Assembly (NCBI GenBank): GCA_024614665.1 | Contig: GCA_024614665.1_4861.1 | Direction: 5' to 3' (one strand) | Source: a phage | DNA length: 64,000 bases | In this document: positions 66-59,537 of the stretch, one piece after another | Layout of the letters: every line of letters begins with the position of its first letter | Position numbering within the stretch: the first letter of the stretch is position 1 | Notes under the pieces: generated by a model | Seen by the model: the letters and a program-made list of their open reading frames with translations, nothing else | What the model was told of the DNA's origin: nothing | Database searches by the model: none | Program-made: the position numbers and the translations under genes

Positions 66-908
66 TTATATCGGGAGATAATGAAGGATGAGATTACCGG
101 CGTAGTTGCTGTCCGCAGCTAGCTTGATAATCGCCACACGCTGATAATCGGGGTTGTAACTATCGTTCGGTGTGACTGAAGTTATCCCCATAAATCGTGC
201 ACCTTGGAGTGCAATTTGTTCAGGTTGCGCATTCGCCCCCGTCACATATGCAAACTTTAATGGCACCACTTCATTCAACAACTCAACATCCGCTGCAGTG
301 ATTGCACGGTTGTAAACCCAATCGGTAGTGAACTGTTTTTGCAGTTCAGTCCAATCGTAACCATACGCCACATACTCGGCCTGTGGTTTACTAGCAACCA
401 CGAACGGTGCGATTATTGCGCTGAGGTCAACATCCGCCACCACATCCGCCAAGTTCGGGAAGAACTTCGCAAAGCGTAAACGGAAACCACCTTGCCAGGC
501 CAAGCAACCGGGCTTAATAGTCACATCGATTAACCAGCTTTCTCCCAAATCTTTTACTGACTGGTCAACGATATCATCGGCAACTAAAGACAAGCCGTAT
601 TTCGCATTCAGAAACGGCAACAACTCAGAGAGTTTATTTACCGGGTCGGCAACGACTACCGGTATTACGTTCCTGAACAGAATTTCCATTTCGATACGGT
701 CGTATTCGAGCGTAACGTTGCCTTTGTAGCCCTTGCCGTTCAACCCGTATAAGAGCACACGTGTATTCCGGTCAGCGCCAGGCGTTTGGACAGACTCAGG
801 GAAGCCAGTTGCAACCTGCTCCCATGTGAGTGGATTGGCCGTTAATCCGTTCTGTCGGTTAATAGCATCTAACAACATCTCTTTCGAGGGCTTATCGTAA
901 ATAGACAC
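66..908 (-). CDS. hypothetical protein, 280 aa; paralog of 919..1716 (fiber/structural-like family)
   Basis: ORF track; N-terminal similarity to the neighbouring ORF (K..LL..IN..N...P.T...V..G.PE.V); shared L..L..FN..YGLSL motif. Confidence 0.6.
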   Translation of the reverse strand: MSIYDKPSKEMLLDAINRQNGLTANPLTWEQVATGFPESVQTPGADRNTRVLLYGLNGKGYKGNVTLEYDRIEMEILFRNVIPVVVADPVNKLSELLPFLNAKYGLSLVADDIVDQSVKDLGESWLIDVTIKPGCLAWQGGFRLRFAKFFPNLADVVADVDLSAIIAPFVVASKPQAEYVAYGYDWTELQKQFTTDWVYNRAITAADVELLNEVVPLKFAYVTGANAQPEQIALQGARFMGITSVTPNDSYNPDYQRVAIIKLAADSNYAGNLILHYLPI

Positions 909-918
909 CTATACCCTC

Positions 919-1716
919 CTAGTTGTTAAAGTGTAAGTTGAGGCTACCCTGGAAGTTCGTACATTTATCGGTCAGTTGCACTGACACGACTTTCGCGAAC
1001 GCCGTATTTGCTCCCGGTAAGTCTGCAGGTACGCCGTCGAATACGACAGTGGCACCACGCAAGTTATACGGGGATGGGGTATCTTCAGCCACCCAAATCT
1101 CAGGAACACATTTGTTGAGTTCGATTGCTAACGCCGTGTCATCTACTTCGATACCGACCGCTAAGAGGCTCAGGAAACGAGAGATGTGGCTACAATCGAT
1201 GTCGCGCGAATAGATATACGCCTGACCCAACTGGATGTCCTGGTGATCCGGGTACAGAAGACCGCTCAACTCTGTATTGGTTATTACTTCTGCCAGAGGT
1301 GTAGCAGGTTTCAGCTCGATGACCGCTTGACTTCGCCACTCGTGGGAAGTTTCAACAGCAACGACTGTGTGAGTCTGTCCATCAATGGGGTTATCTTCGA
1401 TATCCTCAGGTAAGATAGACAGATTAAAACGCTCGTTAATCGCCGCTAGTAAGTCGTGCGTGGTATGCACATCTTCATCGCCAAAGGCAACATCGCCTGT
1501 AAGGTAGTCCTCTAATGGACGACGATGATAGTCCACAATCACTTGCGTACCTTCATCACCGCGCATTTTCGAGGTTAGTACCACCTCCGAATCACGACCG
1601 TCTACTGACACAACCTCCGGCAGTCCGATATCAACATCGTCAAAGGTAAGCGGTGGGCTTATCTTATTCTCTTCGTTGATGAGTTTTAGCAGATTCTGTT
1701 TTGAAGTAAAAGACAT
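919..1716 (-). CDS. hypothetical protein, 265 aa; paralog of 66..908
   Basis: ORF track; tandem paralog; palindrome TTAACTCGAGTTAA directly upstream of the ATG. Confidence 0.6.
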   Translation of the reverse strand: MSFTSKQNLLKLINEENKISPPLTFDDVDIGLPEVVSVDGRDSEVVLTSKMRGDEGTQVIVDYHRRPLEDYLTGDVAFGDEDVHTTHDLLAAINERFNLSILPEDIEDNPIDGQTHTVVAVETSHEWRSQAVIELKPATPLAEVITNTELSGLLYPDHQDIQLGQAYIYSRDIDCSHISRFLSLLAVGIEVDDTALAIELNKCVPEIWVAEDTPSPYNLRGATVVFDGVPADLPGANTAFAKVVSVQLTDKCTNFQGSLNLHFNN

Positions 1717-1846
1717 CGCGTTAACTCGAGTTAAGGGATTATTGAGGTCGTAAGATTTTTAGACCTCCTGCCAGCATATTAAAAGCGTAGCGCGTACCAG
1801 AATTTGAACAAGAGCAAACAAAAAAGAAAAGGAAACAAAAAAAGAA

Positions 1847-1872
1847 GGGGAGCCGAAGCTCCCTTTTCTTCA
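1847..1872. terminator. GC hairpin (GGGAGC-CGAA-GCTCCC) with flanking U/A tracts
   Basis: Downstream of gene 1895..2113; T-run on both sides. Confidence 0.5.
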
Positions 1873-1894
1873 CGACTTTATCCTCAATCGCCGA

Positions 1895-2113
1895 TTAACA
1901 GACCCACACAAGGTCGTTATTCTTTGGGCGGTCTTTAACACCGTAGGTTACTTCAACATTATCAATCGTTTTCTCGCCGTCTTTCATTGTCTTCATGAAA
2001 GCTTTGGCTTCTGCTGCAGACATTTTCAGCAGCAGGTCAATCATGTCTGGCTTACGTTTGGCTGCGGTTTCAACAACAGGTTTGATTTCAGATTTGGAGA
2101 ACAGGTTGCGCAT
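1895..2113 (-). CDS. hypothetical small protein, 72 aa
   Basis: ORF with AAGGAAT SD upstream of ATG at 2113; followed by hairpin terminator. Confidence 0.5.
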   Translation of the reverse strand: MRNLFSKSEIKPVVETAAKRKPDMIDLLLKMSAAEAKAFMKTMKDGEKTIDNVEVTYGVKDRPKNNDLVWVC

Positions 2114-2148
2114 GGGATATTCCTTTTTTGTAGATTGTAGGTGAATTG

Positions 2149-2166
2149 GCGGGACTTTGCCCGCCG
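2149..2166. terminator. hairpin GGCGGG-ACTTTG-CCCGCC
   Basis: Between 1895..2113 and 2175..2621; U-tract weak. Confidence 0.3.
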
Positions 2167-2174
2167 GGTTATTA

Positions 2175-2621
2175 TTAGTGTACTTCTTTTTCTAAACGCA
2201 GGCGATGTGTTGCTAAGGCAACCGCACGGTTTTCGAATTCAAGACTGAATGGGCTGATTTGTGCCATGTATTTCTTTACGACATCGTCAGAGACAACTTG
2301 ACGACGATAATCACGAATCATTTCAGCAAAGCTGCTAGTAGGAAGTTCGTCGTATTCGATTTCCATACCACGTTTATTGATGTAGTACGAAGCAATCATG
2401 TCGTTAAACATTACATCGCCGGCTTCACCTAGAGGGAACTCGTCGCGAGTAGGTTCTGTGGTCTGGAACGTGGCTTCTTTGGCGTTGGCGATAATCTCTT
2501 CGAAGTCCTCAGTAGTGAATTCGCTAGGGTCTTGTTTGTTGGCCGCCATCACGATTAGGAAAGAAATCATAATCGGGTTTTTGCTAGCGTACTTAGTAAG
2601 TTCGTTATTCAGAATGTACAT
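2175..2621 (-). CDS. hypothetical acidic protein, 148 aa
   Basis: ORF immediately downstream of class-1 promoter motif and conserved leader with TTAAGGAG SD. Confidence 0.65.
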   Translation of the reverse strand: MYILNNELTKYASKNPIMISFLIVMAANKQDPSEFTTEDFEEIIANAKEATFQTTEPTRDEFPLGEAGDVMFNDMIASYYINKRGMEIEYDELPTSSFAEMIRDYRRQVVSDDVVKKYMAQISPFSLEFENRAVALATHRLRLEKEVH

Positions 2622-2672
2622 GTTAAAACTCCTTAAGATAATGGTCGATTAGATAAGAGTTAATGGTTAACT

Positions 2673-2698
2673 CTCACCTAAGTAATATATATCTGAAA
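2673..2698 (-). promoter_or_regulatory. class-1 promoter-like motif (mRNA sense TTTCAGATATATATTACTTAGGTGAG)
   Basis: One of at least 5 near-identical copies, each about 50-70 nt upstream of a gene start and followed by the conserved leader. Confidence 0.55.
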
Positions 2699-2733
2699 AT
2701 AATTGTAATCGGACTAGACAAAAAAAGAAGAAA

Positions 2734-2757
2734 CCCTACTCCCGAAGGAGTAGGGTG
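2734..2757 (-). terminator. UUCG-loop hairpin terminator
   Basis: CCCTACTCC-CGAA-GGAGTAGGG followed on the minus strand by a U-run; downstream of 2797..3237. Confidence 0.6.
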
Positions 2758-2796
2758 CTGCTTTATTGACCGCTTTTGGGATAAGTGCCTCTCAAG

Positions 2797-3237
2797 TCAA
2801 TCGGCCACGTAATCGCGTAAGAGTTTCCGGGCTGCTACTGTAGCAGAAACTTGCTCTTTATTAGCGTTAATACCGATGCCATTAAAACGTTTTAGTTTGT
2901 CTAAGAAAACGCTAATGTTTTCTTTCGGCATAGGGCGTGGGAACTTACGCAGAAAATAAAGTTGTTCGCGGCCAGGCACCCAACTGAGTACCCAGCACGC
3001 TTTCAGTGTACGGAAGATATCACGGTAGGGTTTCTTCTCTTGAAAGAAGTCCCCTTTTAACTGACAACGGTCTTCAACCATTGCCTGGAGTTGGGTGGCT
3101 ACGTTGGCCATTGCCGACCAGCTGATAAGACGACTACGGTGTTTACCCACGTAGAGACGTCCACCTGTAACACGACGGGACTCCGGATGTACTATTTTGA
3201 CAAACTGTAATCTTTTCTGTTTGCGTGGCTTTAACAT
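2797..3237 (-). CDS. hypothetical basic protein, 146 aa
   Basis: ORF with CTTAAGGAG SD before ATG at 3237; Lys/Arg-rich. Confidence 0.5.
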   Translation of the reverse strand: MLKPRKQKRLQFVKIVHPESRRVTGGRLYVGKHRSRLISWSAMANVATQLQAMVEDRCQLKGDFFQEKKPYRDIFRTLKACWVLSWVPGREQLYFLRKFPRPMPKENISVFLDKLKRFNGIGINANKEQVSATVAARKLLRDYVAD

Positions 3238-3264
3238 TTAAATACTCCTTAAGGGGCTATGACA

Positions 3265-3597
3265 CTACGGCCGTACAGTTAACATTTCTCTCAGATCGGT
3301 CACATCGAGCTTAGCAATCATGGGTGACGTCGTGATGTGTGCGCAACGAGGCTGTACTCGGTACGCCTCAAGTGGAAAAGGTTTGTTAAATGCTTTTATC
3401 TGGTCGCGGCGGAGCTTCTCCATCGCACGTTTGGCTAATGTCCTTTTTAAAGGTGACCACTTCGCTGCTAAACCGAGAATGATAACATCGACGATTAGCT
3501 GGTTCTCTTGATACTCGAATGTACCAATGAGTTTCTTACCTTTATAGAGTCGCGCACGTCCCTGCTGGAACACGACTGACGTTCGTTTCGTTTTCAT
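3265..3597 (-). CDS. hypothetical basic protein, 110 aa
   Basis: ORF track; same strand and spacing as neighbours. Confidence 0.5.
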   Translation of the reverse strand: MKTKRTSVVFQQGRARLYKGKKLIGTFEYQENQLIVDVIILGLAAKWSPLKRTLAKRAMEKLRRDQIKAFNKPFPLEAYRVQPRCAHITTSPMIAKLDVTDLREMLTVRP

Positions 3598-3640
3598 TGC
3601 TTGTGGTTTCCATGGTTAAAGGGAAAACAAACTGTTATTT

Positions 3641-4042
3641 TTACTCATCTTTTACCTCGAAACCGTGACTACGAAAATACTCGATGGCCGCAGAACGTTT
3701 ACCTACGCAGGAGAGTTTTTCATAGAGTAACTCAAGGAGTGTCTTTGGTTCCCAACGCTGCTCTATGAAATAGATTAGGGCACCCAGGTTCCATCCCAAC
3801 ATCTTATCACGCAGATCCGCATCTCGTCGGGCATCTCGTAGCTCGTCTTCGAGTTTCCGGTTCTTAGACTGTTCCTCAGAAAGTAATCGTGTAAGCTTAC
3901 GGCGTTCTTCGAAAGATTCATCGAGATTTCTCTTCCACGCTTCTTTCGAAATTTCCAACTCAGTCTTTGAGAGGCTGAGTTCCAATTCCAGTATTTCTAA
4001 TTGGCGGCGCAACTGTTTTTTCTCCTGAAACAGGCCGAACAT
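3641..4042 (-). CDS. hypothetical coiled-coil protein, about 133 aa
   Basis: ORF; preferred start ATG at 4040-4042 with AAGGAG 6 nt upstream; charged heptad-like sequence. Confidence 0.55.
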   Translation of the reverse strand: MFGLFQEKKQLRRQLEILELELSLSKTELEISKEAWKRNLDESFEERRKLTRLLSEEQSKNRKLEDELRDARRDADLRDKMLGWNLGALIYFIEQRWEPKTLLELLYEKLSCVGKRSAAIEYFRSHGFEVKDE

Positions 4043-4107
4043 GTTTTCTCCTTGCAATAGCTCTATCGATTCTGTTACGAACTTCTGCTAACGATAATGG
4101 TTCCCAC

Positions 4108-4428
4108 TTAAAATCCATTGCGACCTCCCTGTGCGATGTATAACGCACATTTCGCATTGAGTGCTTCGATATTAGCGATAAGTATCATCACCCCGCCGAG
4201 TGTGCGCGGTACGCGAACTGCTTCGTATTCACGCCCTTGCGTCCGGACACAATATTCATCGCCCAGGAACGCGATTTCGTAATACTCAGCACGTAACGGT
4301 ACAAATGACTGTAGCAACATATCTGCGGTTTGATAGTCGTCAGTCAGTTTCCCGCCCTCGAGTAAATATTTCTGAATCTCGTGAATAGTCAGTCCCCGTA
4401 ATGAAATAGACACCGGCTTCTCCTTCAT
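4108..4428 (-). CDS. hypothetical protein, about 100-106 aa
   Basis: ORF; conserved leader element AATCGACCAT and AAGGAG lie at the start region (ATG 4428 or in-frame GTG 4410), inside the 3' end of the upstream gene. Confidence 0.5.
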   Translation of the reverse strand: MKEKPVSISLRGLTIHEIQKYLLEGGKLTDDYQTADMLLQSFVPLRAEYYEIAFLGDEYCVRTQGREYEAVRVPRTLGGVMILIANIEALNAKCALYIAQGGRNGF

Positions 4429-4765
4429 GGTCGATTAATAACAGTTCAGGTGGTACGTCGTAGTCGATGGGTGCGGACTCCTCCATCGCGCCATACAATC
4501 GCTGATAGAACTCTCTGGAAGTTTCCAGGTGCCCTCTTGACACATGTTCGACATGCGGTACATTAGGATGATAAAACTCGCCATAAGTTATCGCTAACTC
4601 AACAAACCATAGACATAGTTCTCTTGGCCCGTATCGGTTATAAAACTTTATCACCCCAACATCAAACATCTTGTTGTAATGCGGTAAATCACGATAACGA
4701 AGTTTTAGTGTACTTACACCGATGCGTTGAAGCTCGATAGAGATAGCTACGTCTATGGTTACCAT
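4340..4765 (-). CDS. hypothetical protein, 141 aa
   Basis: ORF track; 3' end overlaps start of 4108..4428 in another frame. Confidence 0.55.
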   Translation of the reverse strand: MVTIDVAISIELQRIGVSTLKLRYRDLPHYNKMFDVGVIKFYNRYGPRELCLWFVELAITYGEFYHPNVPHVEHVSRGHLETSREFYQRLYGAMEESAPIDYDVPPELLLIDHEGEAGVYFITGTDYSRDSEIFTRGRETD

Positions 4766-4788
4766 TCACAATCACCCTTATCCGCCGA

Positions 4789-5172
4789 TCAGTTAAATCC
4801 GCTGTATTCGTCAATGGTGCCGTCTTTGATGTACACGCCCGGCGTCAGTGCGACTTTACGCGGATCTTTATCAGCACGCTCGCCGTTACACTGGACATTC
4901 CATTCGTTGGTTAAACGTTCCATTTCACGACTTGCATACAGCCGTACATTCGTAACTAACTCGCTGGCTTCGCCCAGGTGCGACGCATGGAGCACGCTGT
5001 TTTCCAGCCCGTAAAGTTTAGCGAGTAGAATCTTGTTAAGTTCTAACGCTGCTTTTGCAACGAGCGCATACCCTTGACGTTGCCCTTCTGTGCTTGCATT
5101 CAGTAACGTCAGCTGATGGTTTTTCATGTGTTCGATTGCCAGTGCTAAGTCGGTGTTCGTTGGCATTTCCAT
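4789..5172 (-). CDS. hypothetical protein, 127 aa
   Basis: ORF track; tightly packed with neighbours. Confidence 0.55.
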   Translation of the reverse strand: MEMPTNTDLALAIEHMKNHQLTLLNASTEGQRQGYALVAKAALELNKILLAKLYGLENSVLHASHLGEASELVTNVRLYASREMERLTNEWNVQCNGERADKDPRKVALTPGVYIKDGTIDEYSGFN

Positions 5173-5492
5173 TAGTATTTATCCTCACGTTTGCTAAACT
5201 CTTCTAACATCTCGTCGTACACATTCCTGGTATCTTTCAATCCCTGGACGGCCGCGTCATAGACGCGACGCGCAGGAGACGTAAGATGGTAGTGTCCAAT
5301 ACGTTCGATGATATCGTGGCACCGGCTAATGTGCGTACAAAGCCTACTCGCGTTAACACCCAGTTTCGCGAGGTCGTGTCTTAACTGCAAGTTATCGGCC
5401 TGTACACGACGGATAGCGGCAGCTAATTCTCGGTTTTCTTCGTACAGTTGTTTTTGTCGCTTGTTAATCAGCGCAAGTAACCAGTTCAACAT
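5172..5492 (-). CDS. hypothetical protein, 106 aa
   Basis: ORF track; start overlaps stop of upstream gene. Confidence 0.55.
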   Translation of the reverse strand: MLNWLLALINKRQKQLYEENRELAAAIRRVQADNLQLRHDLAKLGVNASRLCTHISRCHDIIERIGHYHLTSPARRVYDAAVQGLKDTRNVYDEMLEEFSKREDKY

Positions 5493-18406: not shown

Positions 18407-19225
18407 TTATAGGGTGCCGATTAGCTCTGTCACCGCTTTACGCTTATTCGCATCCGCAGACATATATCGACCTACCTGAACTTCGCGCCAAGTAAAGCCG
18501 TAATAAATATCGCGTGTGAGTAACGTATCTGCGTTTGACAGAACGACCTTATTGCCATCGGCAGCTTGTTGTTTTAAAAGTTTCGCTAACTCGCGGTGGT
18601 CAGCTTGTGAAAATTCTTTGCTGTGATACTGCGCGTGTTTAGCCGTATCCGAAAGTGGGATGTAAGGCGGGTCAGCGTATATCACAGCGTTAGATGGGCA
18701 CTTATTTAGGATGTCGCGGAAGTCCGCGCAGAGTAGTTCGACGTTGGTTTCCGAACAACGTTTTGCCCACGCCAGAATTTCCTCTTCAGGGAAATAGACA
18801 CCGTTCGGATGTTGACCATAGGGCACGTTAAACCCACCCGACTGATTGTATCTGCACAAACCATTGTAACCATGACGTGTAAGATACAGGAACATCGCGG
18901 CGCGCTGGAGATTAGGTTTCCCCGTGGTTGCTTCGCTGTTAAATCCCTCGCGTCGTTCCATGTAGAGACCGCGGTCCGTCCCATTTGCAAAGAGCGCCTT
19001 TGCTTCCAGAATCAGCGCTTCCGGACGATCGCGCGCCATGGTCAGTAACTCGATTAAGTCCGGGTTCGTGTCGCCGAGAATATAGTTCGGGTATTTAGTG
19101 TTTAAAAACACTGACCCTGCACCCACAAACGGTTCAACGAAATACTCAGCATCTGGAAGCACCTGTAGCAGCTCGGGAAGTACGCGACTCTTACCACCCA
19201 TCCATTTTAAAATTGGTCTTATCAC
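18407..19225 (-). CDS. dam: DNA N6-adenine methyltransferase, Dam family
   Basis: N-terminal KWMGGKSRVL and FVEPFVGAGSV (SAM-binding) plus DPPY catalytic motif. Confidence 0.85.
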   Translation of the reverse strand: MIRPILKWMGGKSRVLPELLQVLPDAEYFVEPFVGAGSVFLNTKYPNYILGDTNPDLIELLTMARDRPEALILEAKALFANGTDRGLYMERREGFNSEATTGKPNLQRAAMFLYLTRHGYNGLCRYNQSGGFNVPYGQHPNGVYFPEEEILAWAKRCSETNVELLCADFRDILNKCPSNAVIYADPPYIPLSDTAKHAQYHSKEFSQADHRELAKLLKQQAADGNKVVLSNADTLLTRDIYYGFTWREVQVGRYMSADANKRKAVTELIGTL

Positions 19226-19231
19226 CCGTTA

Positions 19232-20230
19232 TCATCCTCTCATGCCAGATTGAAACATATCACTAATAGTCAGCCTGGTTGTAGTCTCCACCGGAATGCT
19301 AGGTTCTTCTTTCAGCACACGATCGGCGCGGTTCCCATTCACCCGTTTCCAGCTAATAAGTTCAGGATCGCGTTTCAGCGTTAGTGTACGTAGTACCTGC
19401 TTGCAACGTAAGATGTTGCCATACAGGTGATTTGCTGGATCATTATCAGCAGCTGTTTCAATATAGACTTGGTCGGAATGACGTTGTGCGAAATCGAACA
19501 GCGCGCCCATTAGCCGGCGGCCAATGCCACGTTTACGGTGCGTGGGTGCAACGGTTAAACCAGAAAGTTCAACGACGCCTGGTGTAACCAAGCGCATCTG
19601 GGCAATACCGACGATATCATGACCGTCTCGCCAAATTGCAGTCTCCACATTAGCGTGCTGAATTCTTGCTATTACTGTTTCTGCTAACGGACCAATGTGT
19701 GTATAGTAGCCACGCATATCGTATTCTAGCTCTTCGCAAATTGCACCGCTAATCAAATTCAGGATAACGTCTTTATCATCCTTGGTAAGTTCTGCGTATG
19801 CATCACCAGAAATAATCTTGATTTCCGGTGCGGTTATTACTTTGTCAAACAGTTTGGAATGACATGCCCAAACGATATCTGAAAGAACAAACCCTTTTTC
19901 GACCAGTTTTTGTTCAACATCGTCAGTAGGTGCTGGACACGACATATATTCGAATCCGGTATGGTCGAGCACAAGGGCCAAACCAACTTTATCGAACGCC
20001 CCAGGTACAAACTCCTCAAAATAGTGACAGGTTAGTGTAGGGTCACCGTGTCGATAGGTGGCCACTAAATAACCCTCCCAGGTTTCTTTATTCTTCACCA
20101 CGTAAACAGAATAAGTCTCGTCCTTTAGAAACTCTTTTAGGCGGCGTGCTCGTACAGTATCGGTACCGACGTTATTTCGGAACTCGGCAGTGCGGATGCT
20201 GGTGCGAAACAATTTAGCCACAGTTTTCAT
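19232..20230 (-). CDS. protein with C-terminal GNAT N-acetyltransferase domain, about 333 aa
   Basis: GNAT motif A in RKRGIGRRLMGALFDFA; ATG at 20228-20230. Confidence 0.65.
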   Translation of the reverse strand: MKTVAKLFRTSIRTAEFRNNVGTDTVRARRLKEFLKDETYSVYVVKNKETWEGYLVATYRHGDPTLTCHYFEEFVPGAFDKVGLALVLDHTGFEYMSCPAPTDDVEQKLVEKGFVLSDIVWACHSKLFDKVITAPEIKIISGDAYAELTKDDKDVILNLISGAICEELEYDMRGYYTHIGPLAETVIARIQHANVETAIWRDGHDIVGIAQMRLVTPGVVELSGLTVAPTHRKRGIGRRLMGALFDFAQRHSDQVYIETAADNDPANHLYGNILRCKQVLRTLTLKRDPELISWKRVNGNRADRVLKEEPSIPVETTTRLTISDMFQSGMRG

Positions 20231-20292
20231 TGTAATGCCCTCAAAAGGTATTGCTGTCACAACATGAGGATAATGCGTAAAAAGACAAAAAA

Positions 20293-20316
20293 TTAAGGGG
20301 TCCGAAGACCCCTTAA
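20293..20316 (-). terminator. UUCG-loop hairpin terminator
   Basis: TTAAGGGGTC-CGAA-GACCCCTTAA immediately after the stop at 20320. Confidence 0.55.
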
Positions 20317-20319
20317 TGA

Positions 20320-20976
20320 TTACAGTTCCGGTTTGGAGGCAAGCGCCGTCCAAGTTTCGGAATGTTTGACACTGACGTGCGCTAAGCGATTCACCATGAA
20401 CGCAAATTTGTCCATATGTTTCTGCACTTCGTTATCAGTCAGATTGCCAGCGATAACTTTACCGTCTTTGGTCAGCACGATATAGCCGTGGTTGTTGTCT
20501 ACCGTAGTGAACGCCACATCAATCGTAACCGGGTACAGTTTCACCAGCGTCGGCAGAATATGACCAACACGATCGGCCATACCCGCAAGCTGGCCACAAA
20601 GGTCGGCTTTATCCTGCATGAACAAACGCAACATCGCTACTGCAAACACCGGATAGATGTTTTCGATTTGCGTGTCGTAACGAGACAGACCGATAACTTC
20701 ATCACCGCGGGTCAGCACCATGTTGTTCAGATGTGCGCCTTTATAGATGGTAAAGCGTACGTCGCTACCAAGGTTAACCGCAACGATTTCCTGACCAAGG
20801 TCAATCGGATATTCGCGCTCGATGTGAATTGTTTTCAGACGTTCACTGATTGGTACAATTACATCCGGCTTCGGAATGCTAGATGTATGCGTGGATTCAG
20901 TGGTACGCGTTTTTGTGGATTTAACCACGCTGCTTGCCGTTGAATCTTTTGCTACAGTTTTAGGGGCCTTCGCCAT
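20320..20976 (-). CDS. hypothetical protein with Ser/Thr-rich disordered N-terminus, about 218 aa
   Basis: ORF; ATG at 20974-20976 with TAAGGAGTAT SD; hairpin terminator at 20293..20316. Confidence 0.55.
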   Translation of the reverse strand: MAKAPKTVAKDSTASSVVKSTKTRTTESTHTSSIPKPDVIVPISERLKTIHIEREYPIDLGQEIVAVNLGSDVRFTIYKGAHLNNMVLTRGDEVIGLSRYDTQIENIYPVFAVAMLRLFMQDKADLCGQLAGMADRVGHILPTLVKLYPVTIDVAFTTVDNNHGYIVLTKDGKVIAGNLTDNEVQKHMDKFAFMVNRLAHVSVKHSETWTALASKPEL

Positions 20977-20998
20977 GATATACTCCTTATGGGTTATA

Positions 20999-21388
20999 TT
21001 AGTTATCCCAGAAAGCTGCTTCTGGAAAGTCGTGTTCAAATGCCCGACGGTCATTCTCTACACGGTTTAAATGTGTCGGTAAAGACACGCAGTTATTACA
21101 GATACAAAGTTCTTTATCTCCCTGACTGGGGTCAAAGTCGTACCATTTCCACTCAACAGTATCCCGTTTCGGGAAGGTACCTTTGCAATCGTCGCAGACC
21201 ACTTCCTCCGCTGCAATTTCAGCCTGCAGTTTTTCCCAGCAGTTCTCGCACATGTAATACGTTTCGCGGCCCCATGGGTCGCACTCTGCCGTATAACGTG
21301 GAGCTATAGAGCCCACTTTAAGATGTTTGCATCGTTCATCCTCTTCCGTCATCACGCGACGGGTGATACCATTTACAAACCAATTCAT
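20999..21388 (-). CDS. Cys-rich zinc-finger protein, 129 aa
   Basis: Multiple CxxC pairs (CENC, CDDC, CICNNC). Confidence 0.55.
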   Translation of the reverse strand: MNWFVNGITRRVMTEEDERCKHLKVGSIAPRYTAECDPWGRETYYMCENCWEKLQAEIAAEEVVCDDCKGTFPKRDTVEWKWYDFDPSQGDKELCICNNCVSLPTHLNRVENDRRAFEHDFPEAAFWDN

Positions 21389-21399
21389 ACGTTTGCTCC

Positions 21400-21765
21400 C
21401 TACATCACTGCAGAAGGTTTACGTGCCATGACTTTAAGTCCCGTATCTCGTACCCGGATAGGACAATTATTCATGTAATCAATGCAGGATTCTATTTTGA
21501 AGCTGTGTCGACATTTACCGTTGATGGAACGGTAAACGATTTCGTAATTCAGGCGCAGTGTGTCGGCAACACGCATCAGAGTTTCGATAGTTACGGCTTT
21601 CTCACGTTCATTTTTAATCGCAGAGATTTGTGACGGTGAGCAGCCTACTAATAACGCGATGTCTTTCTGCGTAACGTCCTTCGCAGTAACACGCGTAATA
21701 ATGTAAGAAAGACGAACCAAAAACGTTTTCTTTGCCAACACAACGGCTTGATGTTTAAAACGCAT
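21400..21765 (-). CDS. helix-turn-helix DNA-binding protein (XRE-like), 121 aa
   Basis: QKDIALLVGCSPSQISAIKN resembles an HTH; first gene after class-1 promoter and conserved leader. Confidence 0.55.
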   Translation of the reverse strand: MRFKHQAVVLAKKTFLVRLSYIITRVTAKDVTQKDIALLVGCSPSQISAIKNEREKAVTIETLMRVADTLRLNYEIVYRSINGKCRHSFKIESCIDYMNNCPIRVRDTGLKVMARKPSAVM

Positions 21766-21814
21766 TAGAATACTCCTTTAGATTAATAGTCGATTAGAGA
21801 GTTTAACGACAACT

Positions 21815-21840
21815 CTCACTAAGGTAATATATATCTGAAA
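21815..21840 (-). promoter_or_regulatory. class-1 promoter-like motif
   Basis: Plus-strand CTCACTAAGGTAATATATATCTGAAA; upstream of HTH gene. Confidence 0.55.
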
Positions 21841-21896
21841 TTTAGTGGACTGGAAGCAAAAAGCATAGGACTGTTCTGATCTGTAAAAAAGACAAT

Positions 21897-21922
21897 ACCC
21901 TCTTACCCGAAGGTAAGAGGGG
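21897..21922 (-). terminator. UUCG-loop hairpin terminator (identical copy at 49098..49123)
   Basis: CCCTCTTACC-CGAA-GGTAAGAGGG downstream of tmk. Confidence 0.6.
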
Positions 21923-21927
21923 TACAA

Positions 21928-22551
21928 CTAACCTGCCAGAATACGTTCAACGATACGCGCGGCTTGTAACGCTATATCGTCGTCAGCCGTAACGCGCATC
22001 AGCGGGAACTTATCGCCGCCATCTGTGGTGATGTGGAAAGCAAAACGGTAGTGGTCGCGTAACGCGTCCCAATCAGTCTGTGAGCGCAGATACTTCGCTG
22101 TCAGTACCTCATCATCCCAGTTCTTGCCCTGGGCTTCTGCGCGCTTCTTAAAGCGTTCTGTGGCGGTTTCGTAGGATACATCGGTTGCCACGTAAAGTTT
22201 CGGTGTGTTAATGTGGTCTAATACCCGTGAACGGAAAACTTCCCCTTTACCATCGACGCCTTGGTAGACAATAGTCGATTGACAAAAACGGTCAAAAATA
22301 ACGACATCGTGCTCTGGCACAACGAAATCCATCGTGTATTGGAAATCCAGACACATCGCTTTAGCAATGCGTTCGTTAGAAGCGTGCTGGATAACCAGAG
22401 AACGTGCACTAATACCGGCTTCAGTGGTATTCGTCGGGTGATTGACGATGATGACATTAACGCCAGCGGAGCGCAACATCGCTTGAATCATTTTCGCGAG
22501 TGTTGATTTGCCAGAAAAGTCCGGACCATCCAGCGCCACTGAGTTTAACAT
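21928..22551 (-). CDS. tmk: thymidylate kinase (dTMP kinase)
   Basis: P-loop LDGPDFSGKST near N-terminus and DRFCQSTIVYQG matching the Tmk DRxxxSTxAYQG motif; ATG at 22549-22551. Confidence 0.75.
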   Translation of the reverse strand: MLNSVALDGPDFSGKSTLAKMIQAMLRSAGVNVIIVNHPTNTTEAGISARSLVIQHASNERIAKAMCLDFQYTMDFVVPEHDVVIFDRFCQSTIVYQGVDGKGEVFRSRVLDHINTPKLYVATDVSYETATERFKKRAEAQGKNWDDEVLTAKYLRSQTDWDALRDHYRFAFHITTDGGDKFPLMRVTADDDIALQAARIVERILAG

Positions 22552-23268: not shown

Positions 23269-23309
23269 AGTGAGTTCCTTAATGGTCGATTAAAAGAATA
23301 GGTCGTAGT

Positions 23310-43929: not shown

Positions 43930-43970
43930 TACTGTCTCCTTAAGTTAAAACCGAACGACTCTCTCCCTAA

Positions 43971-43989
43971 GATAATATCTATCTATAAA
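43971..43989 (-). promoter_or_regulatory. class-2 promoter-like motif
   Basis: mRNA sense TTTATAGATAGATATTATC; upstream of 43231..43929. Confidence 0.4.
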
Positions 43990-44064: not shown

Positions 44065-46365
44065 TTAGCCGCCAGCGCCTTCACCGCCAGTACCTGGCTG
44101 GGTAGCACCGCCGCCAACATCACCAGCATTACCACCGTCAGTACCGCCGGTGCCGTTGGAAGTAGTAGTGACGTTGAACGCCAGTTTCTCTTCCACGAAC
44201 TTGGTGATACCTTTAATCCAGATCAGACCAGTGATCGGGCAGTGGCAGATGTGCGCGTTACGAGGCTGTACTGCCAGCTCTTTGCTGGTAGCGCCGTTAC
44301 GCTGGATGTTGATGTTGGTTACCATGATCGGAGACCAGAAGTGGTTACCCCAGTTCAGAACACAGTAAGAACCATCATCAGCGGTTGGAACTTTCAGAAC
44401 CCACTGCAGGCGGCGAGTCCAGCTGCCGTCAGCTTCGTTCTTCACACGCCAGCGGTCATCGTTGGTGGTGATAACTTCGTACTCGTAGCGATCGCCCAGC
44501 AGACGCTGGTCGCCCTGAACCAGCAGCAGCATTGCAGCAGTCGGTTCGTCAGTTGCGATAACAACTTTCGGCAGTGCGTTCGGGTCCGCAGTCAGCAGGC
44601 GCAGAGCCGGCATGAAGCGAGAGTCCTGGATAGCACGAGTTACCTGGTCACCGATACGCTGTACCAGACCCTGACGGGCGTTGATGAGCGCATCTTTGGT
44701 ATCCAGAGACTGGATCACTTTGTCCACTTCGTAGTCGCTTTCGCTGTACCACGGAGCAACCCAGTGACGGCCCAGGCCGCGGATAGCAGGTTTGTCCCAC
44801 GGAGTGATCATGGACGCAGCTGCGTTCTTAACCGCTTCGGTGTAAGACAGAGTCTGAGTGATAGCCAGCATTTCGTTACGGATGTTAACCGCAGAAACGA
44901 GGTCGTCCAGACGTTCGGTGTCGTCGTATTCAACGCCAACCGGAGATTTGGTCATGATCGGAGAACCGTACTGCAGTTTGTAGTTCTCTTGTTCCCAAAT
45001 CGGGTCGAGCAGAAGGCCCTGGGTTCTCCGGTTCTCGTTGGTACGAGTACCGTCGAAGCGCCAGCCCAGCAGCTCCAGTTTCAGGTTGTCGATGATGACT
45101 TTGCCGGTGCCGCTTTCGATATCAACAGCAGTACCAGTTGCATCGTACAGACCTTCGATTTCCAGAGACGGTGCAGTCACGTCAACACGACCAGAGAACT
45201 GACCGTTGGTGAACAGAGACATGCTGATGTTCATGGAATAACGAATGGTGTAATCGTTCTGTGCCAGAGCGGCCAGTGCCGGGATTTCAGCACCTTTCCA
45301 GTCCAGAGACTTGGCGTTCAGGGAGAACACAGTGCGACGGAACTGCAGGACCAGCTCACGACCATCACCTTCAGGAGGACGCTGGAAGGTAGCGAACTGC
45401 ATGTCGCGTACGTTCAGTTTGATCAGCGCACCATCTTTCGCTTCTTCGCTCGGCTTACGCACAGACAGCAGCAGGCTACCCAGCGCTGCACCCGGTGCGA
45501 TTTCGTCGGTTTCATCGTAACCTTCCTGCACGATACCCGGATGGGCAGACAGCTGGAACAGGTTCAGACGACGCTCAGAGAAGCTCAGGTAGTTGGTCGG
45601 ATACGCCGGCACACGACCCAGCTGAACGTTTTCGTTTTCGATGATGTCTTCGGATACGAAGAACTTCGCGTTCTCACCGGTTTCCATCACGTAAGGTACG
45701 ATACGGATAGCATCGTCCTGCAGGACTTTGTGGTTAGACAGCGCGTTATGCAGCGGCTGACGGTTGTCTTCAACCACGTCTTTGGTCAGCAGGGCGTTCA
45801 GGATACCACGAGTTACAGTAGTAACTTTGGTACGAACGGTGATGCCGACGTCGTTGGTGTCCACAGTGATGGTCGGGAACAGGGTTTCTGCAAACTTGGA
45901 TTGAGTTTCCAGAGCACGCACGTTCAGCGTCCAGGTCAGACCCAGGTTTTTGTCCAGGTCTTTGTTGGTGTAGTATTCGGTTGCGACCAGCGGAGTTTTA
46001 CCGTAGTCAGCAGCCAGGGATGCTGCACCAGAAATAGCGATCGGCATATAGCTGGCGTATTCCGGCTTCGCGCTCTCAGCAGCAACACGGGTCATGAAGT
46101 CATCTTCGTGACCGGCAGCAGCCAGAATCATCGCAGAAGCAACCTGAGCAGCGTGGCTCATGGTTTTGCCAGGGTTTACAGCTTCGTAGTGCTGCTGAGC
46201 AGTGTCACGCAGGTTGGTGAAGCCGGCAGCATTTTTACGTACAGATTCGCCAACGGCTACGGTTTGCCATACGTCATTAGCGGAAGAGCCTGCCTTGGCA
46301 GCAGCGACCAGAGCATTGCCCTGCTGAACCAGCTGGTCCAGACTAGCGATACGGGTATCTTTCAT
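44065..46365 (-). CDS. highly expressed large structural-like protein (candidate major capsid or tail sheath), 766 aa, Gly-rich C-terminus
   Basis: Strong codon bias (few stops on the opposite strand, giving a 715-aa shadow ORF); flanked by promoter motif and hairpin terminator. Confidence 0.65.
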   Translation of the reverse strand: MKDTRIASLDQLVQQGNALVAAAKAGSSANDVWQTVAVGESVRKNAAGFTNLRDTAQQHYEAVNPGKTMSHAAQVASAMILAAAGHEDDFMTRVAAESAKPEYASYMPIAISGAASLAADYGKTPLVATEYYTNKDLDKNLGLTWTLNVRALETQSKFAETLFPTITVDTNDVGITVRTKVTTVTRGILNALLTKDVVEDNRQPLHNALSNHKVLQDDAIRIVPYVMETGENAKFFVSEDIIENENVQLGRVPAYPTNYLSFSERRLNLFQLSAHPGIVQEGYDETDEIAPGAALGSLLLSVRKPSEEAKDGALIKLNVRDMQFATFQRPPEGDGRELVLQFRRTVFSLNAKSLDWKGAEIPALAALAQNDYTIRYSMNISMSLFTNGQFSGRVDVTAPSLEIEGLYDATGTAVDIESGTGKVIIDNLKLELLGWRFDGTRTNENRRTQGLLLDPIWEQENYKLQYGSPIMTKSPVGVEYDDTERLDDLVSAVNIRNEMLAITQTLSYTEAVKNAAASMITPWDKPAIRGLGRHWVAPWYSESDYEVDKVIQSLDTKDALINARQGLVQRIGDQVTRAIQDSRFMPALRLLTADPNALPKVVIATDEPTAAMLLLVQGDQRLLGDRYEYEVITTNDDRWRVKNEADGSWTRRLQWVLKVPTADDGSYCVLNWGNHFWSPIMVTNINIQRNGATSKELAVQPRNAHICHCPITGLIWIKGITKFVEEKLAFNVTTTSNGTGGTDGGNAGDVGGGATQPGTGGEGAGG

Positions 46366-50984: not shown

Positions 50985-51034
50985 GGCAATACTCCTTTAG
51001 ATTAATAGTCGATTGAGTTGATAGATTGTCTTCT

Positions 51035-51060
51035 ATCACCTAGGTAATATATATCTGAAA
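51035..51060 (-). promoter_or_regulatory. class-1 promoter-like motif
   Basis: Plus-strand ATCACCTAGGTAATATATATCTGAAA; upstream of small membrane gene. Confidence 0.55.
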
Positions 51061-51078: not shown

Positions 51079-51196
51079 CACCCTCTATAACGCTCTCAAA
51101 CGCGTTTTGAGAGCTTTTATCACTATAGAGGGTCGTTCTACCGTTAGAGTGGCTTTAGAAGGTTGTGAGTGCGTTTAGAGGGCTAAAATAAAGAGA
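51079..51196. promoter_or_regulatory. structured non-coding element: nested 9-bp inverted repeats followed by four TTAGAG(G)G-like direct repeats
   Basis: CCCTCTATA (51082-51090) pairs with TATAGAGGG (51124-51132); inner GCTCTCAAA (51092-51100) pairs with TTTGAGAGC (51106-51114); TAGAG repeats at about 51126, 51145, 51156, 51176. Confidence 0.45.
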
Positions 51197-58676: not shown

Positions 58677-58726
58677 TATAAATACTCCTTAAGATTAATG
58701 GTCGATTACATACGGTTTCAGGCTAA

Positions 58727-59496: not shown

Positions 59497-59537
59497 ATTC
59501 CTTAAGTGATAGTCGGTTAAAAGATTACCAATGCAAT

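Follow-up and report, generated by a model that had tools for sequence, protein, structure and literature searches.

A conserved XRE-type protein at the head of an early-type transcription unit of SPN3US-like jumbo phages, and the question of its target

Which DNA does a small helix-turn-helix (HTH) protein bind when the phage that encodes it keeps its own genome enclosed? The question is raised by a gene at positions 21400 to 21765 of a 64,000-nucleotide (nt) stretch of phage DNA (contig GCA_024614665.1_4861.1 of GenBank assembly GCA_024614665.1), which we analysed as a whole and refer to as the window. An earlier note, made from the letters of the window, had described this gene as the first after an early promoter, followed by a gene for a Cys-rich 'zinc-finger' protein, and had proposed both products as candidate regulators of the host or of later phage transcription. 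The 1.1 kb at the locus are 92-97% identical to the Salmonella phages SaP7, SEGD1, SPN3US and their relatives, and sequence comparison places the window in an SPN3US-like jumbo phage of the genus Seoulvirus, whose members named here have genomes of 240 kb, within the nucleus-forming phiKZ-like group. Our analysis identifies the HTH protein (gp101, after its orthologue in SPN3US) as a genuine member of a small jumbo-phage subfamily with a conserved place at the head of an early-type unit, and we tentatively favour the host chromosome as its target.

Profile searches and a predicted structure both assign gp101 to the XRE/Cro-C1 superfamily, of which we regard it as a bona fide member. It exceeds the Pfam cutoffs of HTH_3 (PF01381; E = 2e-7, 31.4 bits against a cutoff of 23, residues 28-73), HTH_26 (27.0 against 22) and HTH_37 (PF13744; 27.4 against 27), the Pfam matches together spanning residues 13-77, and matches phrog_7126, 'HTH DNA binding protein', in PHROGs at 5.8e-50. 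The HTH motif occupies residues ~28-73 with a putative recognition helix at ~44-54 (PSQISAIKNER). An AlphaFold (AF2) model built from seven homologues has helices at residues 3-28, 33-40, 44-51 and 60-69 with predicted local distance difference test (pLDDT) values of 77-90 per block. Foldseek searches of the PDB returned HigA2 (7ewc), XRE entries 2o38 and 2a6c, C.Esp1396I (3CLC) and HipB (4YG1) as top matches, all of them XRE-fold DNA binders, with probabilities of 0.98-1.0, yet E values of merely 0.03-0.3; a sequence-profile search of the PDB had C.Esp1396I as best match at E = 0.017 only. The earlier note had called the product XRE-like and had named structure prediction as a check, and a DNA-binding fold is what the model and its matches returned. 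Residues 73-121, a region conserved in sequence, are modelled with pLDDT below 50 and include a predicted beta-hairpin. The protein (13.8 kDa) could bind double-stranded DNA sequence-specifically as a dimer, to which just its basic character (isoelectric point (pI) 9.97) and the conserved C-terminal region point.

The protein belongs to a distinct small subfamily which, as far as database sequences tell, is restricted to jumbo phages and which has already been annotated publicly as a putative regulator: SPN3US records label SPN3US_0101 / ACQ60_gp165 'putative transcriptional regulator' or 'HTH DNA binding protein', and SPN3US_0102, the orthologue of the second gene, 'hypothetical protein'. The sole 'gp101' match in a literature search on SPN3US gp101 concerns phiKZ gp101. 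The window protein is 100% identical to its SaP7 counterpart, and orthologues of 26-98% identity occur in at least seven genera or lineages. A single-sequence search of 5.8 billion proteins matched only 13 clusters; a profile search of 1.84 billion representatives gave 76 matches at E ≤ 1e-3, about 30 of them full-length (112-134 amino acids, aa). The N-terminus of nearly all aligned full-length members reads MR(F/Y)xH or a close variant of it, and their common C-terminal signature is L.Y.I...GK...V.VES..DYM. By tblastn, the family was found in 83 phage records, each listed record being a phage genome of ~197-253 kb, with Salmonella, Erwinia, Aeromonas, Klebsiella, Stenotrophomonas and Raoultella as hosts.

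The position of the gene is conserved as well. On the minus strand, the stop codon of the thymidylate kinase gene (tmk), a terminator, the promoter motif and, ~45 nt past this motif, the ATG of the HTH gene follow each other in this order, which at the motif level bears out the gene's description as the first after an early promoter. The HTH gene is likewise first after a terminator and an early-type promoter in SPN3US, phiEaH2, Asesino, pEa_SNUABM_29, Huxley and PS1, and probably in Miami, as read from the upstream DNA; the terminator-promoter order resembles that of the window in SPN3US, phiEaH2, pEa_SNUABM_29, Huxley and Asesino. In Caitlin, a single additional small open reading frame (ORF) separates the early-type promoter from the HTH gene; the gene is promoter-proximal in six of the seven genera or lineages examined. 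Leading an early unit is therefore, in our view, a trait that the family has kept, and the orthologues with their shared N- and C-terminal signatures mark the gene itself as real and selected.

Two sets of records depart from this picture. Phage STsAS has the HTH gene with leader box (see below) and Shine-Dalgarno sequence and without an early promoter, and carries ~600 bp of unannotated sequence after tmk (locus L009, 2376-3000); this record falls 40 kb short of its relatives in length, so that a rearrangement or missing sequence is possible. In about ten SPFM records (within LR535903-LR535917), window positions 20900-22000 align only as 3-14 short pieces with broken ORFs, which looks like frameshift-rich assemblies, not biology.

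How firmly can the unit be called early? The window holds six copies of the promoter's 19-mer core, all on the minus strand, which is the coding strand (0.01 copies expected), and they can be aligned across ~30 nt. Published early-promoter consensuses are TATATTAC for phiKZ and ...TTTRARR.BTATATTACDWHDGTG for 201phi2-1 (PMC7058600, Table 2) and TTTYARRYAKATATTATYWWADTG for OBP (PMC7058600); the early motifs of phiKZ-like phages are centred near -10 and ascribed to the virion RNA polymerase (PMC7598289; PMC8244752). The AT-rich window motif agrees with the published consensuses and is repeated at early operon starts, and we assign the promoter at 21813..21843 to the phiKZ-type early class, presumably read by the virion RNA polymerase. 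As no transcript map or transcriptome of SPN3US-like phages (Seoulvirus) turned up in our literature searches, the early status rests on motif homology. A degenerate early-type motif, GATATTATCTTAGGGAGAG, lies at 43961-43979 (minus strand) directly after the major capsid gene (44065-46365) and before a 232-aa ORF, and phiEaH2 has a motif of the type AGATAGATATTAT at the same syntenic position (241271); the early motif of phiEaH2 falls into two sub-types, ...TATATTAC and ...TAGATATTAT.

The predicted transcript would start with a stem-loop (fold -8.8 kcal/mol, z = -2.5). Such a structure directly follows 11 of the 12 TATATTAC-type promoters of window and phiEaH2 taken together (z -2.1 to -6.9 against shuffles): besides 21797-21817, stem-loops stand in the ~30 nt after the window promoters at 2671, 51033 and 59536 and after the phiEaH2 promoters at 22030, 38278, 87450, 148034, 170864, 223775 and 233327, the window promoter at 23308 being without one. 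The stem sequences differ between promoters and between phages; in pEa_SNUABM_29 the stem reads AGCATT/AATGCT against AGAGTT/AACTCT in the window, i.e. two pairs are changed on both sides (compared by eye, uncounted). This recurrence despite differing stem sequences points to a hairpin at the 5' end of early mRNAs, which may make them more stable or help their export from the infection vesicle.

In sum, promoter, leader (stem-loop, box and Shine-Dalgarno sequence), HTH gene, gene of the Cys-rich protein and a third gene form what reads as a three-gene early transcription unit (Table 1). Both ORFs of the earlier note lie on the minus strand at the coordinates it had given, like all genes around the HTH gene, and the order of terminator, promoter, HTH gene and Cys-rich gene agrees with its view of the two proteins as the leading products of an early-type unit. 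Searches of the third-gene product against Pfam and PHROGs found no known domain, and scans of the window for tRNA genes and Rfam families were empty. Downstream of the unit, a GNAT acetyltransferase gene (19232-20230, minus strand) has no early promoter after the terminator at 20292-20317; the catalytic domain of its product is confined to residues ~190-270 of 332, the N-terminal ~190 residues being without a match in Pfam or PHROGs.

Table 1. Coordinates of the HTH-gene unit and its flanking features in the window
Feature	Position	Strand	Details
Terminator of the upstream tmk unit	21898..21921	-	intrinsic, GC-rich; CCCTCTTACC-TTCG-GGTAAGAGGG, then T-rich tract
phiKZ-type early promoter (motif)	21813..21843	-	AAATTTCAGATATATATTACCTTAGTGAGAG; core TATATTAC at 21824..21831
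Predicted 5'-terminal stem-loop of the early transcript	21797..21817	-	GAGAGTT-GTCGTTA-AACTCTC, 7-bp stem
Leader box	21784..21796	-	TAATCGACTATTA; just 5' of the HTH Shine-Dalgarno sequence; family consensus aaTCGACYATta
Shine-Dalgarno sequence of the HTH gene	21773..21778	-	AAGGAG
HTH gene	21400..21765	-	121 aa; ATG at 21765, TAG at 21402..21400; orthologue SPN3US_0101 / ACQ60_gp165
Gene of the acidic, putative two-zinc protein	20999..21388	-	129 aa, pI 4.7 (4.73); orthologue SPN3US_0102
Third gene of the unit	20320..20976	-	218 aa; phrog_32024; orthologue SPN3US_0103
Terminator closing the three-gene unit	20292..20317	-	intrinsic, strong; ATTAAGGGGTC-TTCG-GACCCCTTAAT + TTTTTT
Dam-like methylase gene	18407..19225		three genes downstream of the HTH gene

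But, on which DNA should such a protein act? That it regulates host or later phage transcription, or binds the promoter motifs or the repeat element at 51079..51196, as the earlier note had proposed, is pure inference. The latter element (minus strand), between a terminator and the early promoter at 51033-51051, contains repeated CTCTAA/CTCTATAG words and a long nested palindrome, CCCTCTATA...GCTCTCAAAACGCGTTTGAGAGC...TATAGAGGG, and showed no link to the HTH protein; binding of the promoter motifs likewise found no support. We tentatively favour an action on the host chromosome, a reading which we regard as a real possibility, short of probable. On this view, cytoplasmic host ribosomes would produce the protein within minutes after infection; like HipB-type XRE proteins, it would form dimers through the conserved beta-hairpin region at its C-terminus, and helix 44-54 would recognise specific double-stranded DNA. 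At no stage does the phage genome lie open, as the early-infection vesicle and then the chimallin nucleus surround it, and early mRNAs are translated in the cytoplasm (PMC12908238; PMC13282480). Since the phage genome is thus enclosed, the DNA met by the protein would most probably be the host chromosome, where it may repress or retune host genes during takeover; the Cys-rich protein would more likely be a protein-binding module with a separate target than a DNA-binding partner.

A precedent exists in phage RAY, whose XRE regulator gp094 localises on the host nucleoid outside the phage nucleus and is the only XRE protein of a nucleus-forming phage with an experimental localisation (PMC10299810, Prichard et al. 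2023). Asesino, whose HTH orthologue is gp118, leaves the host DNA intact (PMC11724907), and the phages phiKZ and 201phi2-1 (Pseudomonas) and Goslar (Escherichia) are reported host-DNA degraders (PMC13282480). The tblastn search for the HTH family matched no Pseudomonas phage and, among Escherichia phages, two SPN3US-like ones only, the presence of phiKZ, 201phi2-1 and Goslar in the searched collection being unchecked.

Several observations weigh against a host target. Orthology of gp101 with RAY gp094 was rejected (BLASTP 25% identity over 52 residues, out of register, E = 0.002; differing genomic context), and the precedent is thus only an analogy. The correlation with host-DNA persistence is drawn from very few phages, and dimerisation is assumed, as the C-terminal half of the model has pLDDT below 50. 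The recognition helix, S(P/A)SQISA(I/V)KNERE, is invariant in Seoulvirus and Erskinevirus, i.e. in phages of Salmonella and Erwinia, and differs in Machinavirus, which also infects Erwinia; the individual phages with a differing helix include Huxley, PS1, Miami and Caitlin. It thus follows the phage lineage and not the host, which a phage-borne site would fit at least as well, and a conserved box stands in the HTH gene's own leader in exactly the clade with the invariant helix.

The box leads to an alternative that we consider unlikely, namely that gp101 reaches the phage DNA by import and recognises sites there such as aaTCGACYATta, which precedes about ten small non-structural genes including its own, in order to autoregulate, shut off or re-time this regulon. 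In favour of this view, the box is enriched in the window (11 matches, 2.6 expected; minus-strand copies at 2639-2651, 4425-4437, 21784-21796, 23280-23292, 51003-51015, 58696-58708 and 59507-59519) and stands behind five of the six early promoters there, the copies at 4425..4437 and 58696..58708 being without a canonical promoter. It can be read as a dyad, TTAAT-N5-ATTAA, with half-site centres 10 bp apart, and it is kept in the HTH leader where the helix is invariant, in Seoulvirus and Erskinevirus, and missing in Huxley, PS1 and Miami; the Asesino gene has the same promoter, hairpin and box upstream. By BLAST, the box is restricted to Seoulvirus and Erskinevirus. A weaker version stands in Caitlin, whose helix differs, which speaks against this view.

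A whole-genome scan of phiEaH2 weakens the case further. Out of 24 TCGACYAT sites, 10-11 are immediately followed by a Shine-Dalgarno sequence and start codon, always in sense orientation; only five of these pre-start-codon copies stand behind an early promoter and six after a terminator or gene end (phiEaH2 loci L010-L014). A subset of small non-structural genes thus carries the box 5-19 nt ahead of their Shine-Dalgarno sequences, whether or not an early promoter lies upstream. Its core TCGACYAT is asymmetric, the apparent dyad being due to A/T-rich flanks that shift by 1 nt. Following ribosome-binding sites in one orientation, the box fits an RNA leader or translation-initiation element or a compact promoter better than an operator, and as a site of the HTH protein we retain it only at low probability. 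Action on phage DNA would, moreover, need selective import of gp101. Pairing of the box with 16S rRNA as a translational enhancer was also rejected, since 92-99% of shuffled sequences were at least as stable against E. coli 16S rRNA. Its candidate roles are those of a compact promoter read by the second (non-virion) polymerase, of an RNA leader element or of a site to which a protein binds. The most far-reaching version, in which the gp101 family acts as a lineage-specific timer that is imported, binds the box at about ten small genes including its own and switches them off or hands them from virion to second polymerase, strikes us as very improbable; if true, the self-contained transcription system of nucleus-forming phages would gain its first described trans-acting transcription factor.

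A role in anti-defence appears to us slightly less likely still than a phage-directed one. Here, gp101 would be either an antitoxin mimic directed against a host toxin of a toxin-antitoxin or abortive-infection system, or an Aca-like autorepressor of an anti-defence operon comprising the Cys-rich protein and gp103, the third-gene product. The best structural matches include the antitoxins HigA2 and HipB, the cutoff of the HigA2-type profile HTH_37 was passed, PADLOC gave weak HTH matches, and expression is predicted to be immediate-early. One metagenomic relative of the Cys-rich protein is encoded ~1.2 kb downstream of, and three genes away from, a Tad2-like anti-Thoeris gene, and Aca proteins are described as HTH repressors of strong early operons (PMC9410906). 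Against this stand the NCBIfam antitoxin models, which remain far below their cutoffs (TIGR03070 17.8 against 71.65; HipB PRK09726 13.7 against 79), and the neighbours of the HTH gene, tmk beyond the terminator and the Cys-rich gene, neither of which is toxin-like; as type II antitoxin of the HigA/HipB kind, gp101 was thus rejected. No inverted repeats or palindromic operators were found around its promoter beyond the terminators, the hairpin and the leader box, and the Cys-rich protein and gp103 match no known anti-defence family in Pfam, PHROGs or PADLOC.

Does the second gene of the unit help to decide? Eight residues of its product (C20, H22, C47, C50, C65, C68, C97 and C100) show no variation among nine homologues with identities as low as 40% and form two putative four-ligand sets, C20/H22/C47/C50 and C65/C68/C97/C100. 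In a confident model (mean pLDDT 85), helix 48-60 has C47/C50 at its N-terminus and helix 98-101 has C97/C100. The zinc part of the label 'zinc-finger protein' is supported by these invariant candidate ligands, whereas no match to a known DNA-binding zinc-finger family or fold was found. The protein is acidic, reached no threshold in Pfam, NCBIfam or PADLOC (best Pfam match DZR_2, 14.8 bits against 27), and had as best match among solved folds (Foldseek, PDB) the FYVE-type domain of rabphilin-3A, which is not significant (E = 0.18, template modelling (TM) score 0.27). Its BFVD matches are confined to its own family of uncharacterised jumbo-phage proteins, e.g. ORF161 of Ralstonia phage RSL2. 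A profile search returned at least 254 clusters at 90% identity, none of which has a name or a Pfam domain; many come from contigs of 150-240 kb. We see no sign of DNA binding, and the proposal of the earlier note that this protein is a regulator finds no support; on the model, it represents a fold-orphan family of jumbo phages. On one metagenome contig (L019, 231.6 kb; 622-5406), a gene of this family lies between a chimallin gene (PF25677) and a fragment resembling RNA polymerase beta'.

We give little credence to a two-subunit regulator, in which the zinc protein would serve gp101 as co-repressor or anti-repressor. The two are of opposite charge (pI 10.0 and 4.7), and their genes adjoin (11-nt gap) and are presumably co-transcribed in Seoulvirus, phiEaH2 and Machinavirus. 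The genes are direct neighbours in SPN3US, STsAS, phiEaH2, Caitlin and Huxley; however, another ORF stands between them in Asesino and pEa_SNUABM_29, the HTH gene lacks the zinc neighbour in Miami and PS1, and the zinc gene lacks the HTH neighbour in RSL2, in Vibrio phage pVp-JHP1101 and on all four metagenomic contigs. As each is found without the other, they are not an obligate pair, and with ORFs inserted and a zinc family far larger than the HTH family (at least 254 clusters against 76 representatives) we rejected a conserved functional pair. The block tmk, HTH gene, zinc gene, ..., Dam methylase gene is kept in three related genera, a synteny that common descent explains. The inserted ORFs, of 151 aa in pEa_SNUABM_29 (locus L008, 3381-3836) and 139 aa in Asesino (locus L023, 1914-2333), are unrelated by eye, and the intergenic spot seems to be a hot spot of gene insertion. 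Membership of gp101 among the restriction-modification C proteins was dismissed for want of an endonuclease gene and of C-box palindromes at the gene's own promoter.

Nucleus-forming jumbo phages are transcribed by two polymerases of their own, and we know of no sequence-specific transcription factor tied to their temporal programme. A conserved, promoter-proximal and presumably immediate-early HTH protein is therefore a reasonable entry point to this programme, and likewise to the question of how some of these phages deal with a host chromosome that they leave intact. Its fold is ordinary, it is already annotated as a 'putative transcriptional regulator' and it has no identified target; gp101 would become more interesting if it were found to act in trans within the transcription programme of the phage itself. 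More unusual are two by-products of the analysis, the large fold-orphan two-zinc family and the stereotyped early leader of stem-loop, box and Shine-Dalgarno sequence.

Set against known systems, the locus combines familiar parts. Its promoter resembles the early promoters of phiKZ, 201phi2-1 and OBP in the agreement of TTTCAGATATATATTACCTAGGTG with the published consensuses, in its location directly after terminators at the head of operons of small hypothetical genes and in a 5' untranslated region of ~40 nt; it differs in that the Seoulvirus promoter is known from its motif alone, and the downstream stem-loop and leader box are absent from the descriptions in PMC7058600, PMC7598289 and PMC8244752. 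The zinc protein is comparable to treble-clef or cross-braced double zinc fingers (FYVE/RING-like) in its two putative ligand sets, each made of a knuckle (C-x-H or C-x2-C) and a C-x2-C at a helix N-terminus, but is acidic, carries an extra N-terminal beta-sheet, belongs to a family confined to jumbo phages and meets no Pfam cutoff. Like Aca repressors, gp101 is a small HTH protein predicted to be co-transcribed with small proteins of unknown fold from a strong immediate-early phage promoter; in contrast, aca genes lie downstream of acr and their products bind inverted repeats in a promoter of the host RNA polymerase, whereas the HTH gene is first in its unit, with a promoter presumably read by a phage polymerase inside the vesicle and no operator found.

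RAY gp094, from an Erwinia phage, is likewise a small XRE-type HTH protein of a nucleus-forming jumbo phage, but is HigA/VapI-like, with 96 aa, and not an orthologue. From characterised XRE/Cro-C1 proteins, gp101 differs in having no toxin or restriction partner gene, in its family-specific N-terminus MR(F/Y)xH, modelled at the start of the long helix 3-28, in the conserved C-terminal ~45 residues without a confident model, and in being encoded by a lytic jumbo phage that does not use the host RNA polymerase. With HigA2, C.Esp1396I and HipB it shares the HTH fold and the length class, with a small predicted C-terminal beta element as in HipB, and its family's recognition-helix signature, S.S.IS.IKN, resembles the usual S.S.IS.IE.G of XRE proteins.

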